IMG/VR virus record: IMGVR_UViG_3300009026_000012
Coordinates: 1-54,673 of that record
Reading direction: 5' to 3' (one strand)
DNA length: 54,673 bases
Source: a virus
Lineage: Duplodnaviria > Caudoviricetes
Below, piece after piece: positions 8,381 to 38,740 of the stretch (positions are counted from its first letter, which is position 1; each line of letters opens with the position of its first letter). The notes under the pieces are model-generated. The model had not been told where the DNA came from, searched no databases, and saw only the letters and a program-made list of their open reading frames with translations. The translations under genes and the position numbers were made by a program.

Positions 8381-8821
8381 CTACTCCCGTTTCGTTGTTG
8401 TTGGAGCTATTATACCGTTGTTGGCGGGAGTGTCAACAAGTATTTTACAATCTTTTTTGATTGCGCCCACCCCCAATATGGCCGCCACTTCTCGGAGCTG
8501 CTCTACGCTAGGCGTGTCTTTTCGGTTGCCCGGCCACGAGTGTATGTACAGTTTAGTGCGCACGGCGTTGGCGATGAGCTTCGACTCTTCGTACTCTTGG
8601 TAGTCTTGCTCGTTCGCAAAAATCTGGTAGTTTGACGAGTAGCCCCACTTAGGCACCCACGAGGATATGTGCACCGGCACCGGCTCGGCACCTATACCGC
8701 GCTGCAGGTAAAAAAACTTAGTCCCTACTTTGTGTACTTCTATCGGCCCCGTAATGTGCTCGAATCCGGGCGCCCCGACGATGTAGAGGGTCTCCCCTTC
8801 TTTCGGCCTGTATGGTCTCAT
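8381..8821 (-). CDS. Hypothetical protein whose C-terminus reads through module 2
   Basis: 146-aa ORF; last ~26 codons are the promoter repeat. Confidence 0.6.
   Translation of the reverse strand: MRPYRPKEGETLYIVGAPGFEHITGPIEVHKVGTKFFYLQRGIGAEPVPVHISSWVPKWGYSSNYQIFANEQDYQEYEESKLIANAVRTKLYIHSWPGNRKDTPSVEQLREVAAILGVGAIKKDCKILVDTPANNGIIAPTTTKRE
8384..8461 (-). promoter_or_regulatory. Repeated promoter/leader/RBS module, copy 2
   Basis: TTGACA (8436-8431), 16 bp, TATAAT (8414-8409), same leader. Confidence 0.85.
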
Positions 8822-33117: not shown

Positions 33118-34358
33118 ACGTAGTACACTATTCTTTTACCTGCAGGGAGCTCCAATATCTCCGCCCCGGACAGGTCGTTCGTGTCCATTAAGAAGAGGAG
33201 GCTGTCGTCCACGTCTCCGTAGAGCTCCGCCGCTAGGTCCAACGCGGTGCGGGGGGACACTAGCGTTATGTTTCGCTCTTGGGCTAGGTTAAACGAGATC
33301 TTGACCAGCTGCCCGGCACTGCGCGAGACCGTTTTCAGTAGGGGCGTGTGGGCCTCCCCCGTGTCTATGAGGCCTAGCGCCGCGTGGTTGTCGTCTCTCC
33401 ATGAGGAGACGGAATCGAACAGCTCTAGCACCCCGTTTGCAGCTGCTAGCGCCTCGGGCTTACTTTTAAAAGACCCATTTACCGAAGAAAGCGCCGCCGC
33501 CGAAGTAGCGCCGGAAGCGAAAAGGCTCGCCGCCCTGAAATCGTTCGCCGTGGTGTTCCCATTCCCTTTAGTACGGACCGCCCCGTCTCCGTAGTAGATG
33601 GATTCGGCCAAGTTTTGGTAGGCGTTAAGCTGCGCTTTAATGTCCGCCGCTGCCAGTGCGGGGGCCTGTATCAATTGCAAAGTCTGAAAACCCAACGTAA
33701 GCGGGTCGTCTATAAGCACGTCTATGCCGTTATATATCGAGTCTCTTATCTCGTTAAAGTCCCGCGCTACCTCGTCTCGGCCGTCTGCTAAAGGCTGGAG
33801 CACGGCCACGGTGTTATTAAGCAAGGCCTTGTATGATTCAAGAAAAGCGAAGCGCTCGCTAGGGGCCTCTATAATCACCCTCTCGTCTAGCTCTTCGGAG
33901 GCGGCGGCGTTAAAGGTCTCCACGTCGTTGCGGACTACCTGCCCCCCGTCGGGTTCGACCAGCGGGAACAGGGACTCTATGGTCTCCATGAAACCTATTT
34001 GTAGGGTTACTTGGTTGGCCCCCTCTACCATTGGGTCGGTACGTGTAACCGTACCCAGCGGGGTGGCTTTTAGAATCCCGTGCCTAGGGTGCTCCAGCGT
34101 TCCGAAATCCTGCACTGCGAGACTCGCTTCGAAGGCGTCCGCCTCTAGGTCGCAATCATCGCCGGAGAAAAAAACTAGCATAGGAATAATCCTAGGACCT
34201 AGCCCTCTTTTCTGGACGTACGCGCCGTCTACGTTGGGGAACTCGAAAGCCGTCCCCCGGTGTTCTGTGCTAGAGGTTAGCTCTTTAAAAGGCAAAACGG
34301 TCCGCAGGCCGTTGGGGTCCGTATATGCCGCCTCCCTTATTCGATCACTCCACGCCAT
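33114..34358 (-). CDS. DNA circularisation protein (Mu gp43/gpN-like)
   Basis: MAW.DR.REA, FEFP..DG..V...G, GTL.HP..G; C-terminal LA.ELYGD. Confidence 0.82.
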   Translation of the reverse strand: MAWSDRIREAAYTDPNGLRTVLPFKELTSSTEHRGTAFEFPNVDGAYVQKRGLGPRIIPMLVFFSGDDCDLEADAFEASLAVQDFGTLEHPRHGILKATPLGTVTRTDPMVEGANQVTLQIGFMETIESLFPLVEPDGGQVVRNDVETFNAAASEELDERVIIEAPSERFAFLESYKALLNNTVAVLQPLADGRDEVARDFNEIRDSIYNGIDVLIDDPLTLGFQTLQLIQAPALAAADIKAQLNAYQNLAESIYYGDGAVRTKGNGNTTANDFRAASLFASGATSAAALSSVNGSFKSKPEALAAANGVLELFDSVSSWRDDNHAALGLIDTGEAHTPLLKTVSRSAGQLVKISFNLAQERNITLVSPRTALDLAAELYGDVDDSLLFLMDTNDLSGAEILELPAGKRIVYYV

Positions 34359-35953
34359 TACATTGCCCCCGAAGGTTGTAGCGTTATTCTGCTACGCCCG
34401 CCTGCAGAGCCTCTGCGGCGTTTTAATTCCACGTTATCCGTGGCGCCAGAGATTACGAGCTCCGAAGTCTCTCGGCTCTCGGATATGCTGCGGGCGACGG
34501 CTTGCTCCGGAGATACCACCCCGCTGGCTTCGGATCGCTGAGACCTCCGCCGCGTCGTGTTGTCCTCCATGGGGGTGCCGCCGCCGGCCACGTAGTCGAT
34601 AGCTTTACGCACCCAATCAGGTATGAGCCCTTGGACTACGCGGGCGAGCGCTTTCGCGCCGGTCGTTATTTTGTCCCACATCTTCACAAAGAATGAGGAT
34701 ATAGGCTCCCAGTGCTTGCGCACCATGTTAGCCGCGCCTATGAGCATTCCTATAGGCCCCATCAAAAATAGCACATTACTGAGCCCGGAGTCCGCGAAGG
34801 ACATAAATGCCGCTTTTGCTTTGTCCCACCATATAATCACGGCCCCCACGGCGACGCCGAGAGCAACAAAGCCGAGAACCATAAGCCCTAGGGGGTTCAT
34901 CGCCATAACGATGTTTACCGCCGTCATTACGATTATAAACGCCTTGAGGACCGCCATAAGGCCCACAAACCACGCGATAGCCTTAGCGATGGTGGCGCCG
35001 TGTTCCTTAATGAATCTTATCGATGTTTTTAGCCCTTCGACGAAGCCGTCCACCCACTGAGTGACTAGGGCCTCGTTTGCGGAGAGCCACGCGGAGGCCG
35101 TATCCGTGGCCGTTATCATATACTCCACCAACTGCTTAACGTGCGGGGCTAGCTTCTTACCGATACCGTCGGAAACGCCTAGGATCTTATCCGTTAGCGT
35201 GTTCCATCGCCCGGTCAACGTAAGCGAGGCTTTTGTCATAGTGTCGTGGAAAGTGGCCCCCTCTTTGGTGAGCTCTTTCATAGCGGCTAGCACCATTTTG
35301 AACGACACCTCCCCACGCGAGGCCATTTCGAAAACCTCCGCTTGGGTGGTTTTGCTCATCTTAGCAATTACCGAAACCAAGGGGACGCCCGCCGTAGTAA
35401 ATTGGCGTAAGTCTTTAGACATGGCTTTCCCGTTCGCGGATATCTCGGCGAAGTTTATCGATAGGTTGCGGAAGCTCTCGGCATCGCCTGATGTAAGATC
35501 CCCTAGTAGCCGCATTGTGGGGATTACGCTGTCTTTAGTAGCGGCCCCCATGGCGAGGAGGATCTTAGCGGACGCGGCCACGTGTCTAAATGCAAAGGGG
35601 GTACTTTCCGCCTCCCTTTTCAGTTTCTCTACCATTTCGGCGGCGCCTTCCGCGCTGCCCATCAAAGGCTCGAACCCGGTGCGGGCGTTTTCAAACATGC
35701 TAAAAGCTTTTACCACCCCCACTACGGCACCCGTGAGCAAACCTAAGCCCCCTATGGCGAGGCGTTTTAAGTTTTGGCCGGTTAGGCCTATGGTGCGGGC
35801 GAACTTATTAAACCGCCTATTAAGGCGGTCTATGTGTCGAGAGGATACGCGGGAGAACTTGTTCATTCTCGCTTGCATACGCGAAAGCGGTCGGGAGATC
35901 TTATCGACCCCGATCACATCGGCGAATAGGGAGAACCTTCTGCTATTCATCAC
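34358..35953 (-). CDS. Tape measure protein
   Basis: A..TPF....V, L.D...G, NP.G repeats, helical Ala-rich. Confidence 0.85.
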   Translation of the reverse strand: MMNSRRFSLFADVIGVDKISRPLSRMQARMNKFSRVSSRHIDRLNRRFNKFARTIGLTGQNLKRLAIGGLGLLTGAVVGVVKAFSMFENARTGFEPLMGSAEGAAEMVEKLKREAESTPFAFRHVAASAKILLAMGAATKDSVIPTMRLLGDLTSGDAESFRNLSINFAEISANGKAMSKDLRQFTTAGVPLVSVIAKMSKTTQAEVFEMASRGEVSFKMVLAAMKELTKEGATFHDTMTKASLTLTGRWNTLTDKILGVSDGIGKKLAPHVKQLVEYMITATDTASAWLSANEALVTQWVDGFVEGLKTSIRFIKEHGATIAKAIAWFVGLMAVLKAFIIVMTAVNIVMAMNPLGLMVLGFVALGVAVGAVIIWWDKAKAAFMSFADSGLSNVLFLMGPIGMLIGAANMVRKHWEPISSFFVKMWDKITTGAKALARVVQGLIPDWVRKAIDYVAGGGTPMEDNTTRRRSQRSEASGVVSPEQAVARSISESRETSELVISGATDNVELKRRRGSAGGRSRITLQPSGAM

Positions 35954-36188
35954 GGGGCCTTGTTAGTTCGCGCAACTCGGGGCGCAAATAGTCGTAGAAC
36001 ATTTGCACCTCTGCAATGGTCAAGGTCCTAGGGTCCGGGAGGTTCCGGTACATTCGGCACACCTGTACAAATTGCTCCATAAGAACATTGTACATCGAGT
36101 GCGCTTTCACAAAGTCCCCGCTGTCCTCGTCGCGCGTAAAGTCTTGAGTATCGGAGCCACTACGTACTAGGGTAGTGACTACCGGGAG
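35943..36188 (-). CDS. Tail assembly chaperone, -1 frameshift extension (G-T type)
   Basis: Slippery T TTT TTC at 36194-36188; -1 frame is open to 35943. Confidence 0.65.
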   Translation of the reverse strand, partial: LPVVTTLVRSGSDTQDFTRDEDSGDFVKAHSMYNVLMEQFVQVCRMYRNLPDPRTLTIAEVQMFYDYLRPELRELTRPRDE

Positions 36189-36685
36189 AAAAAAACGCTC
36201 GCTACCTCCACGCAAAAATTACCGTCCGCGATCTCCATATTAGCGAACGTCTTAGGCGGTAGCCCTGTGACGGCACCCGCGAAGGCTTGCATTTTTTTCA
36301 TGTTTTGGCCTTCTTTGTACTGGTCTAGCTGCATCATCACATTGAATTTTGGTTTTTTAAAAACAACCGTTTCTAAGCTCGCCATGCTGCCCGGCACGAG
36401 GTCGAACTCCAGTGTATTCTCATCCTCAAGTACGCGGAAACGCCCCCGCAGTATCTCGCGGCATACTTTTCGCTCCAGCTCGTCGAAGCCCTGCTTAGTG
36501 TCCGCGTCCATGAATTCGCGGTCCGTGTCAACGTCCCACATTCGCATGAATGCCGCGAACTCGGCCTTAGCCAGCTCCACGGCAGCGTGTTTGCGCTCTG
36601 CTTCGCTCGGTTTTTTTCGTTCTGGCTTAACGGCCTTAGTTGTCACTGTATTGTCTTGCGTATCGTTGCTCATTTGTGCCCCCAT
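36179..36685 (-). CDS. Tail assembly chaperone
   Basis: Between tube and TMP; ends VFFSR at the slippery site; start may be 36673. Confidence 0.75.
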   Translation of the reverse strand: MGAQMSNDTQDNTVTTKAVKPERKKPSEAERKHAAVELAKAEFAAFMRMWDVDTDREFMDADTKQGFDELERKVCREILRGRFRVLEDENTLEFDLVPGSMASLETVVFKKPKFNVMMQLDQYKEGQNMKKMQAFAGAVTGLPPKTFANMEIADGNFCVEVASVFFSR

Positions 36686-36702
36686 CGGACAAGTTAAAAA
36701 AA

Positions 36703-36834
36703 TGGTTGACGCGGAAGGATTCGAACCTACCTACAGCCGGTAGACCTAGGGAAGGTTGACCCGGCCAGCGGATTGGGGGCGGCGCTATGTTGGGTAAACT
36801 CGCCCCGCTTGCCTAACCACTCGGCCACGCGTCA
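36703..36834 (-). ncRNA. tRNA-like RNA with expanded anticodon loop and variable arm (identity unassignable)
   Basis: Acceptor TGACGCG/CGCGTCA plus ACCA; D arm GCC-GAGTGGTTA-GGC; T arm GTAGG-TTCGAAT-CCTTC; 132 nt. Confidence 0.8.
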
Positions 36835-36842
36835 TTGAATCG

Positions 36843-37232
36843 TTATTGCGGCTCTAGTTGTCCCGGGCCTTCTAGGTCGATAGTGGCGGAAGCGCTCGCG
36901 CTGCCTTGCACTATCTCGCCGACTATCTGCCCCGAGCCTTGGTATATCACCCCAGACCCGTAGGTTATGCCGACACTGAAAAAGTCGTTACGGTCTGCTA
37001 GTTCCTGTAGGTATTCTTGGTCGCCCTGCGCGTCGTCGATAACCACCGCAACGCCTGCGAGCCGCCACCCCTTACGGGTTTTTATTAGGCGGGCCGTCTT
37101 GCCGTCGCCATTCATGGCGACCTCGTTCTCCCAACCGCCTTTCCTTCGGTTGGCCTCGGCGTCGCCTGTTACGGCGAGCGTTCTACCCGAGAGCGTAATG
37201 CTCTCAATACTTCCACCTATCGCGGTTGACAT
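36843..37232 (-). CDS. Tail tube protein
   Basis: 129-aa beta-rich ORF directly after the sheath. Confidence 0.75.
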   Translation of the reverse strand: MSTAIGGSIESITLSGRTLAVTGDAEANRRKGGWENEVAMNGDGKTARLIKTRKGWRLAGVAVVIDDAQGDQEYLQELADRNDFFSVGITYGSGVIYQGSGQIVGEIVQGSASASATIDLEGPGQLEPQ

Positions 37233-37243
37233 CGGTTTGCCCC

Positions 37244-38740
37244 TTATTGGTCAAGTAGCTGCGCTTGCCCGAAATAAAACGAGAAGAGCAAGTCTATGGA
37301 GAATATGTTCGCATTACCCACAAGCGTGATAGGGAGGACCATGTCGAGCCTTTTCGGGTTCTGGTCGTTCACTGAGGCCTGTATGGTCGCATTCGTGGCT
37401 TTTACGTCGGTAAGTATCGCCTGTAGCCCCAACTGAGTGCACATATCTGCGGCCTCAATTTTAGCCGTTCGCGGGAACTTAGCCGTACGGTTGGTCGTGT
37501 ACTCGCCGTCTTTCATCAATGGCGCACCATCCCACTCCGCATTGTTAAAGCGGCGGTCTAGGTTGTACAGCACGTTTTGAATTTTAACGATATCCACAAC
37601 ATAACGGAACTCCGGGTTAGGGTTCGCGTCTGGGTGGTAGAACGTGACCACATCCTTAATAAAGATTATTCCGTCTCGGCTTTCCACAGAGCTAGAGCCG
37701 TCTTTGATCGCGGCGTCGCGGGCTGTGTAGTCCCACTGCTCCGAATCTAAGCCCGGCGCTATGCCTGTGGCTTGTAGGCTGCCATAGTCGTGCGGCGGGT
37801 TGCTGTTCGCCATAGCCACGATGCGCGCTAACTGTCTAGCCGCGACCACGAAGGGCAAATCCAGAGACCCCGGGGCGGGTAGCTGCCCGTTGATCTTGTC
37901 GTACTTACGGACGGCCGAGACCGCGCACGCTAGCGTACGGTTTGCGATGGTGTTCCCGGTAAAGCAGACATAAGGCTTACGCGTCAACGCACCCCAGCGG
38001 CCGTCTCCGTGAGCCTGAATCTTATCCAGCGTGGTGGTGTCTGATATCTCGAAACAATTCAAGAGCATGGACTCCCACACGTCGCCCATTTGCGCGAGCG
38101 CCGGAGAGATATCGGGATTAATAAGCCCCCCCGCTGGTTGCGTAATCGCGAAGGTGATCCCGTTAGAGGGGCCCACCACTTTAATTTTTAGGCCGTTGCT
38201 ACTCGTGCCTTTCCACTTAGCCGTGAGCGTGGCCGTATTGGAGCCGGACGTAGCTGTCATAGGCATTTCAATGATAGCGTTTACCGCTTGCGCGATACGT
38301 GCATCCAGTGCCGTGCCCAGTTCCCCAGCGGAGATAACAAAACTCTCGCTTCGGATCTCGTTCACTTCGACGTAGTAGGCTCCGCTAACTGTTTGGGTTC
38401 CTACGGCTGAAATAGAGCCCACAGCGGCCACGGAGGAGGCTGCGGCTTGCATAGGGTAGATGGTCATAGGAATGGCGCCTATGCCGTCCCGGTTCTCAGG
38501 GAGTAGCTGCATAGCTGCCAAGTGTAACGGGCTGCCATAGCCGTACGTACTGCCAACCTCTCGCGCGCTAGTGTATTGCGCCTTGGTGCTGGAGTACGAG
38601 GACCCGGTAGAACCTTGGCCGAATACGGCGACCCGTTGGGGCAAGAACACTACCTGATCGTTATTTTTACTGCCCGGGGAGGTGGATATACCCACCGTCC
38701 GCGCGCGGTTGCTTTCTGGTACTGCGGCGCTTATGCCCAT
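37244..38740 (-). CDS. Tail sheath protein (Mu gpL-like)
   Basis: YGYGSPLH, LTAKWKG...N, VTFYHP, N.QNPKRLD. Confidence 0.88.
   Translation of the reverse strand: MGISAAVPESNRARTVGISTSPGSKNNDQVVFLPQRVAVFGQGSTGSSYSSTKAQYTSAREVGSTYGYGSPLHLAAMQLLPENRDGIGAIPMTIYPMQAAASSVAAVGSISAVGTQTVSGAYYVEVNEIRSESFVISAGELGTALDARIAQAVNAIIEMPMTATSGSNTATLTAKWKGTSSNGLKIKVVGPSNGITFAITQPAGGLINPDISPALAQMGDVWESMLLNCFEISDTTTLDKIQAHGDGRWGALTRKPYVCFTGNTIANRTLACAVSAVRKYDKINGQLPAPGSLDLPFVVAARQLARIVAMANSNPPHDYGSLQATGIAPGLDSEQWDYTARDAAIKDGSSSVESRDGIIFIKDVVTFYHPDANPNPEFRYVVDIVKIQNVLYNLDRRFNNAEWDGAPLMKDGEYTTNRTAKFPRTAKIEAADMCTQLGLQAILTDVKATNATIQASVNDQNPKRLDMVLPITLVGNANIFSIDLLFSFYFGQAQLLDQ

Follow-up and report, generated by a model that had tools for sequence, protein, structure and literature searches.

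A tRNA-shaped element ahead of the tail chaperone gene of a contractile-tailed virus, and a covarying leader RNA in the same gap of its relatives

This report concerns a tRNA-shaped element in the tail operon of a marine virus (Duplodnaviria; Caudoviricetes) represented by the IMG/VR record IMGVR_UViG_3300009026_000012. The record, 54,673 bp long, is rated complete, and the window analysed here is the entire record. A sequence-only reading of the window had picked out the element as a maintained tRNA mimic that does not decode, and had offered two roles for it, either a decoy for anticodon nucleases or synthetases, or a processing signal that steps down expression after the tail tube gene. Here, we weigh these proposals against the anatomy of the element and against a conserved RNA that occupies the same gap in related phages.

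The tail operon and its tRNA-shaped element

The contractile-tail module lies on the minus strand and comprises sheath, tube, a chaperone-position gene, an open reading frame (ORF) of 90 amino acids (aa), tape measure and baseplate hub. The genes and signals around the element are as follows.

37244-38740, minus strand: sheath gene (ORF list and PHROG profile matches)
36843-37232, minus strand: tail tube gene, 129 aa, with a TAA stop at 36845-36843 (PHROG phrog_4699 tail tube, E 7e-34; ORF list)
36703-36834, minus strand: the whole tRNA-shaped element, 132 nucleotides (nt) (sequence; relaxed ARAGORN call)
36678-36684, minus strand: G-rich motif TGGGGGC resembling a ribosome-binding site (RBS)
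36179-36685, minus strand: tail-chaperone-position gene (phrog_4648, E 3e-15; ORF list)
34358-35953, minus strand: tape measure gene (ORF list and PHROG profile matches)

The chaperone-position gene stands in the same place as the annotated tail assembly chaperones of relatives. Its ORF has two in-frame ATGs, 12 nt apart, at 36685-36683 (giving 168 aa) and 36673-36671 (giving 164 aa); since the G-run overlaps the first and stands 5 nt ahead of the second, the second is the likelier start. The 90-aa ORF (35943-36215, minus strand) shares 37 nt with the end of the chaperone ORF and lies just ahead of the tape measure gene, a layout typical of frameshifted tail-chaperone pairs.

The element begins 8 nt past the tube stop codon and finishes 17 nt ahead of the first chaperone ATG. 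Its parts, together with the T run that follows it, are these.

36828-36834, minus strand: acceptor stem 5' strand, TGACGCG (7/7 Watson-Crick with 36707-36713; present in every fold)
36811-36825, minus strand: D arm, a 3-bp stem GCC/GGC with a 9-nt loop containing GG (sequence; ARAGORN drawing)
36767-36809, minus strand: anticodon-like arm, AGCGG (36809-36805) with CCGCT (36771-36767) (sequence; fold energies)
36801-36806, minus strand: GGGGCG, a putative internal G-rich RBS look-alike, able to pair with CGCCCC at 36776-36781
36774-36780, minus strand: C-rich loop segment GCCCCCA, a perfect complement of TGGGGGC at the chaperone start
36731-36766, minus strand: variable region, 36 nt, with GCCGG/CCGGC and ACCT/AGGT (sequence; fold)
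36714-36730, minus strand: T arm, GTAGG, TTCGAAT loop and CCTTC, with one U-U mismatch in the stem (sequence; ARAGORN; motif count)
36707-36713, minus strand: acceptor stem 3' strand, CGCGTCA (sequence)
36703-36706, minus strand: discriminator A (36706) and encoded CCA (36705-36703) (sequence)
36696-36702, minus strand: run of seven T, U7 in the RNA (sequence; a simple terminator scan makes no call)

The acceptor stem, ACCA end, D and T loops, 33-nt loop, sub-hairpin and T7 run that the sequence-only reading had listed are all in the sequence where it had placed them. One measurement needs correction: both helices of the variable arm are present, but the region runs to 36 nt up to the T stem rather than the ~32 nt given earlier. 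The first acceptor pair is U1-A72, and U8 falls at position 36827, ahead of the D arm. The conserved tRNA bases U8, A14, G18, G19 and A21 and the complete T loop are all intact and, because these D- and T-loop bases are present, the 'elbow' of an L-shaped tRNA could form.

How much of a tRNA is this? The element has the 7-bp acceptor with discriminator and CCA and the D and T arms with their elbow bases, and it lacks a 7-nt anticodon loop with U33 and acceptance by tRNA detectors. The anticodon-like stem encloses exactly 33 nt (36804-36772), including a GGCG/CGCC pair and no U33-type loop, and no single contiguous excision from this loop, as read from the sequence, leaves 7 nt with U33. Default ARAGORN finds 0 tRNA genes in the window, and hence, by that test, no other tRNA in this phage; Rfam 15, which includes the tRNA family, gives no match in the window at the gathering score and none on the element region at E<=10. 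With its introns option on and its threshold lowered, ARAGORN makes a single call in the whole 54.7-kb window, at the site of the element, and none in 300 dinucleotide shuffles of the 351-nt region. It draws a 74-nt tRNA with a 58-nt insertion, at the price of a G.G mismatch in the anticodon stem and a G at position 33. The T-loop 11-mer GGTTCGAATCC occurs once in the window against 0.04 expected. Because the relaxed call is unique, the shuffles are empty and the T-loop 11-mer is rare, we take the tRNA likeness to be real; and since neither an excision nor the 58-nt parse restores a 7-nt U33 loop, the earlier view that this is not a decoding tRNA holds, in line with its rejection by the default detectors.

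Other identities were considered and set aside. Transfer-messenger RNA (tmRNA) gives no match in ARAGORN or Rfam. For YrlA or another bacterial Y RNA, there is no Rfam match and the ends of the element lie in the acceptor stem; a Pfam scan of the window's proteins, which covered the 40 largest of the 75 listed ORFs, found no Ro60 (TROVE) family, nor any tRNA-repair or nuclease-inhibitor family. A phage attachment site (attP) derived from a tRNA gene would be a partial copy of the tRNA beside an integrase; no tyrosine integrase is matched in the whole record, and both tRNA halves are present, within the tail operon.

The folding z-score of the region is -2.36. When the acceptor, D and T arms are enforced, the best fold (-45.2 kcal/mol) pairs GGGGCG with CGCCCC in the loop; the fold as drawn in the sequence-only reading comes to -41.8 kcal/mol. 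The C-rich segment has two possible partners, the internal look-alike (36806-36801; CGCCCC duplex energy -14.3) and the motif at the chaperone start (GCCCCCA/TGGGGGC duplex, -16.4 kcal/mol).

Elsewhere, the genome carries lambda-type head genes, Mu-type baseplate genes, a family A polymerase and a D5-type primase. A 146-aa protein (8381-8821, minus strand) matches Pfam Phage_ProQ_C_like (E 2e-11), an RNA-chaperone-family domain.

A conserved leader RNA in the same gap of related phages

What occupies this gap in other phages? Hundreds of proteins are related to the tube protein at 52-65% identity, the nearest (P0002, P0003 and P0005) at 64-65%. Profile-guided scans supplied 80 relatives' loci from IMG/VR, 80 from metagenomes and 7 from metagenome-assembled genomes (MAGs), with tube identity of at most 61% in the loci from the metagenome and genome scans, and a tblastn search found 40 cultured gammaproteobacterial phages, 10 of which were fetched. 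A normal tRNA in this slot of relatives would have spoken for a decaying gene; across 188 loci, default ARAGORN called 0 tRNAs.

Most of the gaps of ~90-105 nt hold a structured, pseudoknotted RNA of ~95 nt, which we name R1 in this analysis. A covariance model built from 41 aligned gaps matches 57 of the 80 IMG/VR loci and 59 of the 80 metagenome loci (E<0.01), as well as 7 of the 10 cultured phages. Among 118 distinct gaps, 86 loci were submitted to the model and 85 matched at E<=0.001, the other 32 having shown no match at E<0.01 in earlier scans, which places R1 in the tube-to-chaperone gap of 85 of 118 distinct relatives. Its bearers are many marine and freshwater myophages; one example is L016:2879-2981 (one of the 85 in alignment A3), and the cultured ones score as follows.

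Shewanella SppYZU01: 94 bits (example locus L179:1582-1681)
Pseudoalteromonas PY6: 40 bits
Oceanospirillum PD0307: 37 bits
Vibrio 97.13: 25 bits
Aeromonas AeroV_348: 24 bits
Shewanella SFCi1: 20 bits
Acinetobacter Scuro: 20 bits

Of the nine annotated GenBank records among the ten fetched, eight have nothing in the tube-to-chaperone gap, and the ninth, Scuro, annotates only a terminator, RBS features and an ORF inserted there, all of them outside the R1 match; the entry for Vibrio 97.13, the tenth, carries no annotation whatever. Rfam 15 gave no match in 12 R1-bearing loci.

R1 opens with a 7-bp closing stem, directly inside which come a 3-bp stem with a loop of ~8 nt and a linker of 4 nt. A hairpin of 5 bp lies flush against the closing stem's 3' strand; after that strand come a tail, usually ACC(A), a spacer rich in A and U and, 8-10 nt ahead of the chaperone AUG, a motif that commonly reads AUAGGGC. 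The ~8-nt loop complements this RBS motif, and a second copy of the motif stands 5-8 nt upstream of the closing stem. The three stems covary across the 85 sequences.

Closing stem: 99% of cells paired; 7/7 pairs changed on both sides
Loop-bearing stem: 97.6% paired; 3/3 pairs changed on both sides
3' hairpin: 95.8% paired; 5/5 pairs changed on both sides

None of 500 shuffles reached these covariation scores, and slid controls were ~50% paired. The 85-sequence alignment was fitted to its own model; an independent MAFFT alignment gives 96.9%, 95.9% and 90.4% for the closing stem, the loop-bearing stem and the 3' hairpin. The loop is 81% paired with the upstream copy of the motif and 83% paired with the chaperone RBS. 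Both of these pairings are absent from the covariance model, and both figures are depressed by register shifts within the alignment. In R1 variants, loop, RBS and look-alike change together, as in the G-rich/C-rich versions of L003 and L027. The covariation in relatives that the sequence-only reading had called for is therefore strong in R1, but the R1 model does not score the window's own element, a point to which we return.

In quantitative terms R1 is tRNA-minihelix-like. The first closing pair is G:C in 81 of 85 sequences, with U as the preceding base (-1) in 45; no nucleotide separates the hairpin from the 3' strand in 83, and the linker is 4 nt long in 76. NCC follows immediately past the modelled 7-bp stem in 49/85 (ACC in 44, ACCA in 32), and a tally that allows an eighth pair or an extra preceding base raises an RCC tail to ~59/85. 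A run of TTT occurs within 12 nt of the stem in 46/85.

R1 belongs to the chaperone gene. It stays at the chaperone AUG in spite of insertions of an ORF, a terminator or other DNA after the tube gene (L046, L061, L073, L157, L160, L171 and Scuro). The distance from the tube stop codon to the R1 look-alike is mostly 6-16 nt, and because it is 76-544 nt in five loci, coupling to termination of the tube gene cannot be obligatory. In the nearest sheath relatives (L163:3887-4040 and L164:3887-4500), a GC-hairpin terminator sits right after the tube gene and ahead of an R1 variant, with ~500 nt of extra sequence between the two in L164; because the terminator precedes it there, R1 is a leader of the chaperone cistron and not a terminator of the tube gene. 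In L029, L034 and L039, R1 has been lost and one copy of the motif kept ahead of the AUG.

Could R1 encode a leader peptide? An ATG follows the look-alike in only 30/85 sequences, with inconsistent stops, so a peptide is not general. The two bases before the closing stem together with its first base read ATG in 28/85 and GTG or TTG in 15 more, opening short ORFs of inconsistent length, and such a codon a few nucleotides past an RBS look-alike could be a decoy start site. Two further loci (L121:1879-2000 and L165:4147-4250) are without R1 or a tRNA shape; by eye, in each a long stem closes around a segment that complements the purine-rich motif ahead of the chaperone ATG.

The window's element and R1 share their slot and strand, directly upstream of the chaperone start. 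In both, seven base pairs close the structure, a hairpin of 5 bp sits against the 3' strand of that stem, and ACCA and an A/U-rich spacer lead to a G- or purine-rich RBS motif. R1 carries the complement of its RBS in an internal loop; the loop of the element holds a perfect 7-nt complement, which 13% of shuffles equal or exceed. R1 differs in having no D arm, T-loop sequence or long variable arm. These features suggest that the element is most likely this phage's version of a chaperone leader that most related myophages keep.

A second form comes closer to the tRNA shape. It fills the tube-to-chaperone gap, in place of R1, in two relatives.

L047:2882-2998 (IMG/VR): tRNA-shaped element, no R1
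L169:1777-1908 (MAG contig): tRNA-shaped element, no R1

These elements, of ~120-132 nt, have an acceptor-like stem of 8-10 bp, a D-like arm of 4 bp containing GG, a variable arm that is long here too, and a T arm; the T loop is canonical in L169 and one base longer in L047. The two are homologous, being identical in 82% of columns, and their differences include a single compensatory change in each of three stems: C-G to U-A in the acceptor extension, and U-A to C-G in both the D stem and the variable-arm stem. Among the 24 stem pairs counted, only the outermost (10th) acceptor pair is lost. The central region of L047 complements the RBS through 8 pairs with a bulge (duplex -22.2 kcal/mol, equalled by 1 of 2000 shuffles), and L169 has a perfect complement of 8 nt (equalled by 22 of 2000). 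Two sequences make modest evidence, but they do show that this slot can maintain an element that is tRNA-shaped and complementary to the RBS.

Pattern searches for further members of this form gave little. A 16-nt pattern returned L047 itself and coding coincidences only, and an 18-nt pattern returned 64 loci with a tube gene on the L047 contig only, most of the others having an ARAGORN tRNA call at the match or within ~120 nt. In five unrelated IMG/VR contigs (L190, L202, L203, L222 and L227, at ~560-760), there is a tRNA-shaped element of ~150 nt whose T arm is canonical and whose closing stem resembles an acceptor; it includes a terminator, and ARAGORN does not call it as a tRNA; L211, L212, L215 and L245 share a different tRNA-shaped element.

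The window's element itself recurs in DNA contigs from two public runs, which are identical to it and, for that reason, provide no natural variants to use. Among the other short contigs of these marine runs are some whose match, at 80-90% identity, is confined to the T arm and the 3' half of the acceptor (36694-36730). They are probably Tyr- or Leu-type tRNA genes, judging from a 30-nt loose-end consensus, and they hint at the tRNA from which the element came.

Possible working and rival explanations

We judge the chances to be about even (a probability of roughly 0.5) that the element is a tRNA-derived, tRNA-shaped but non-decoding leader of the chaperone gene, with a cis-regulatory or processing role. 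As such, it would be transcribed within the tail-operon mRNA, between the tube and chaperone cistrons. The top half of the tRNA (the acceptor stacked on the T arm, the D/T elbow and ACCA) would provide a rigid, nuclease-resistant scaffold and a likely substrate for the enzymes that mature tRNA ends, with RNase P predicted to cut at 36835/36834 and 3' trimming to reach the CCA. Such processing would split the heavily used sheath-tube message from the chaperone/tape-measure message. Translation could be controlled as well: off when the C-rich loop segment (36780-36774) pairs with the chaperone RBS (36684-36678), and on when it pairs instead with the internal look-alike (36806-36801). Either way, the output of the chaperone and the genes downstream would be set below that of sheath and tube.

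How would processing relate to the pairing of the loop? In R1, RNase P may remove the upstream look-alike together with the 5' leader, leaving the loop free to pair with the RBS and close it. RNase P is reported to need a 3' RCCA in order to cleave a pseudoknot substrate (PMC12710915). The model for R1 is coherent and would use all of its conserved features; because the look-alike is internal in the window's element, the trigger there would have to differ.

Several observations weigh against the element being a leader of this kind, or against reading it through R1. It is a singleton in the collections searched: blastn against phage records finds no DNA match to it, an exact 21-nt pattern search finds none, scans with the tube and sheath proteins turn up no close relatives (best sheath identity 52%), and among the public runs no RNA run with the window locus is listed. 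Run on the window with filters off, the R1 model gives a best score of 4.2 bits (E 0.6), off the element, and because it does not score the element, kinship between the two is a matter of position and layout rather than of common descent. The RBS look-alike is upstream of the closing stem in R1 and internal in the element. Unconstrained, the element region folds to a minimum free energy of -54.9 kcal/mol in a structure that is not a cloverleaf. An RBS complement of at least 7 nt also appears in 269 of 2000 shuffles (13%) and the duplex energy is ordinary, 930 of 2000 shuffles reaching the same, so that the window's own 7-nt complement is weak evidence. Nor are the tRNA-like ends constant, since L169 has no RCC(A) and R1 ends in ACT in 13/85 (tally), so that RCC(A) is not universal; and the hairpin loops of R1 are not T-loops, which, with the ACT ends and with a nearby T run in just 46/85, counts against a pure tRNA mimic.

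A serious rival, unlikely as we consider it, is a class II tRNA gene in decay, captured or once functional, drifting with insertions in its anticodon loop and variable arm and with a position that is incidental. In its favour, none of the detectors accepts the element as a tRNA, the T stem has one mismatch, chance may explain the RBS complement, no relatives turned up that could show maintenance, and the phage has no other tRNA. Decay is difficult, however, to reconcile with where the damage lies, confined as it is to two loop tips with the L-shape undisturbed; random decay would not spare seven of seven acceptor pairs, the elbow bases and the T loop. Moreover, the slot is a conserved site of structured RNA in relatives, two of which keep another tRNA-shaped element with compensatory changes, and a normal tRNA was found there in none of the 188 loci.

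Perhaps, instead, the acceptor/T helix and the U7 run belong to the end of a transcript, as a leaky terminator or as a stabiliser of the 3' end of the sheath-tube mRNA, with the loop and the RBS playing no role. The U7 run comes immediately after ACCA, just over half of the R1 elements have a T run near the stem, and the nearest sheath relatives carry a classical terminator right after the tube gene. We nevertheless think this improbable. Between the stem and the U run lie four unpaired bases, and the simple terminator scan makes no call there; 39 of the 85 R1 elements have no T run. L073 and L046 have a separate terminator ahead of R1, which argues that R1 does something else, and R1 goes with the chaperone gene rather than with the tube gene.

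A role in trans, in which the RNA, once excised, sequesters a host defence nuclease that targets tRNA, a synthetase or some other tRNA-binding factor, is quite improbable. The intact tRNA top half with ACCA would suit a decoy, and charging by the class II synthetases for Leu and Ser does not require the anticodon. The decoy for anticodon nucleases proposed in the sequence-only reading finds no support, there being no mimic of an anticodon loop to offer them. The late structural operon and the conserved link of the equivalents to the chaperone RBS point to control in cis, and none of the tRNA-repair, Ro60 or nuclease-inhibitor families was matched in the 40 largest of the 75 listed ORFs. Scarcely credible is a real tRNA, for example of class II with unusual introns, whose insertions are spliced out as the relaxed ARAGORN parse would have it: that parse also needs a non-canonical insertion site beside its G.G mismatch and G33, no single contiguous excision yields a U33 loop, insertions of 26-58 nt are far too short for a self-splicing group I intron (~200 nt or more) and find no intron match in Rfam, and bacteria are not known to have the bulge-helix-bulge endonuclease.

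To return to the leader of the chaperone gene, a tRNA mimic that does not decode and a step-down or processing signal are the better-supported halves of the sequence-only reading; the latter is a candidate role, supported by context in the structured RNAs that relatives hold in this gap. A bolder proposal, possible though on balance doubtful, is that marine myophages use a family of tRNA-shaped mRNA leaders with an anti-RBS in the place of the anticodon. RNase P and trimming of the CCA end would cut the tail-operon message there, flipping or releasing the RBS-pairing loop and fixing the ratio of tube to chaperone. The window would then hold the most complete form, a full class II cloverleaf that may be excised as a stable small RNA presenting the anti-RBS on a natural 'tRNA scaffold', and R1 would be a stripped-down form without the D arm.

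Meaning and likeness to known systems

A full-text literature search found no description of the element or of R1. The IMG/VR structured-RNA catalogue (PMC10690425), in the part of its main text available, does not mention tail genes, and the R1 core string is absent from six searchable files of its supplements; three files are unsearchable, so R1 may be among the unnamed candidates of that catalogue. The element is a new variant of tRNA-like RNA, and R1, within the reach of these searches, is an RNA family not described before.

If the proposed working is true, phages set a ratio of tail proteins by a tRNA-shaped mRNA switch, with an anti-RBS where the anticodon would be, that borrows the tRNA-processing machinery of the cell. 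In DNA phages, tRNA mimicry would thereby be put to a new use. Quite apart from the singleton, R1 is a widespread, covarying RNA ahead of tail-chaperone genes. It is present in cultured phages of Shewanella, Oceanospirillum, Aeromonas, Acinetobacter, Pseudoalteromonas and Vibrio, and it is open to direct bench tests. For annotators there is a warning here, in that tRNA-shaped elements rejected by standard finders may be regulatory rather than junk.

How does the element compare with known RNAs? With bacterial class II tRNAs (Tyr, Leu and Ser) it shares the 7-bp acceptor, A73-CCA, a 3-bp D stem with a GG loop, a canonical T loop and a stem-forming variable region; it differs from them in its 33-nt loop without anticodon or U33, its 36-nt variable region and its U1-A72 pair, and in being rejected by detectors. 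Modules shaped like tRNA also occur within longer RNAs, such as the 3' ends of plant RNA viruses, bacterial operon mRNAs, MALAT1 with its mascRNA, and mitochondrial transcripts with their 'tRNA punctuation'. Like the plant-virus tRNA-like structures and the RNase P sites in mRNAs, the element is an embedded tRNA-shaped module with an acceptor/T minihelix and a CCA-type end for tRNA enzymes. Unlike them, it belongs to a DNA phage, where it stands between two cistrons and carries an 'anticodon' complementary to the next RBS.

Engineered 'tRNA scaffold' RNAs hold a foreign RNA in the anticodon arm of a tRNA for stability and correct processing. The element resembles them in keeping an intact acceptor/D/T frame with a foreign segment in place of the anticodon loop, and it differs in being natural, the function of its inserted segment being one that we infer; if that function is real, it would be their natural counterpart. 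The E. coli thrS translational operator, finally, places a mimic of the tRNA-Thr anticodon arm next to an RBS, where it is read by the cognate synthetase. Both are tRNA mimics in an mRNA leader beside an RBS, control of initiation being a feature of thrS, but they have kept opposite parts of the molecule: thrS mimics the anticodon arm, whereas the element leaves that arm unmimicked and keeps the top half of the tRNA.

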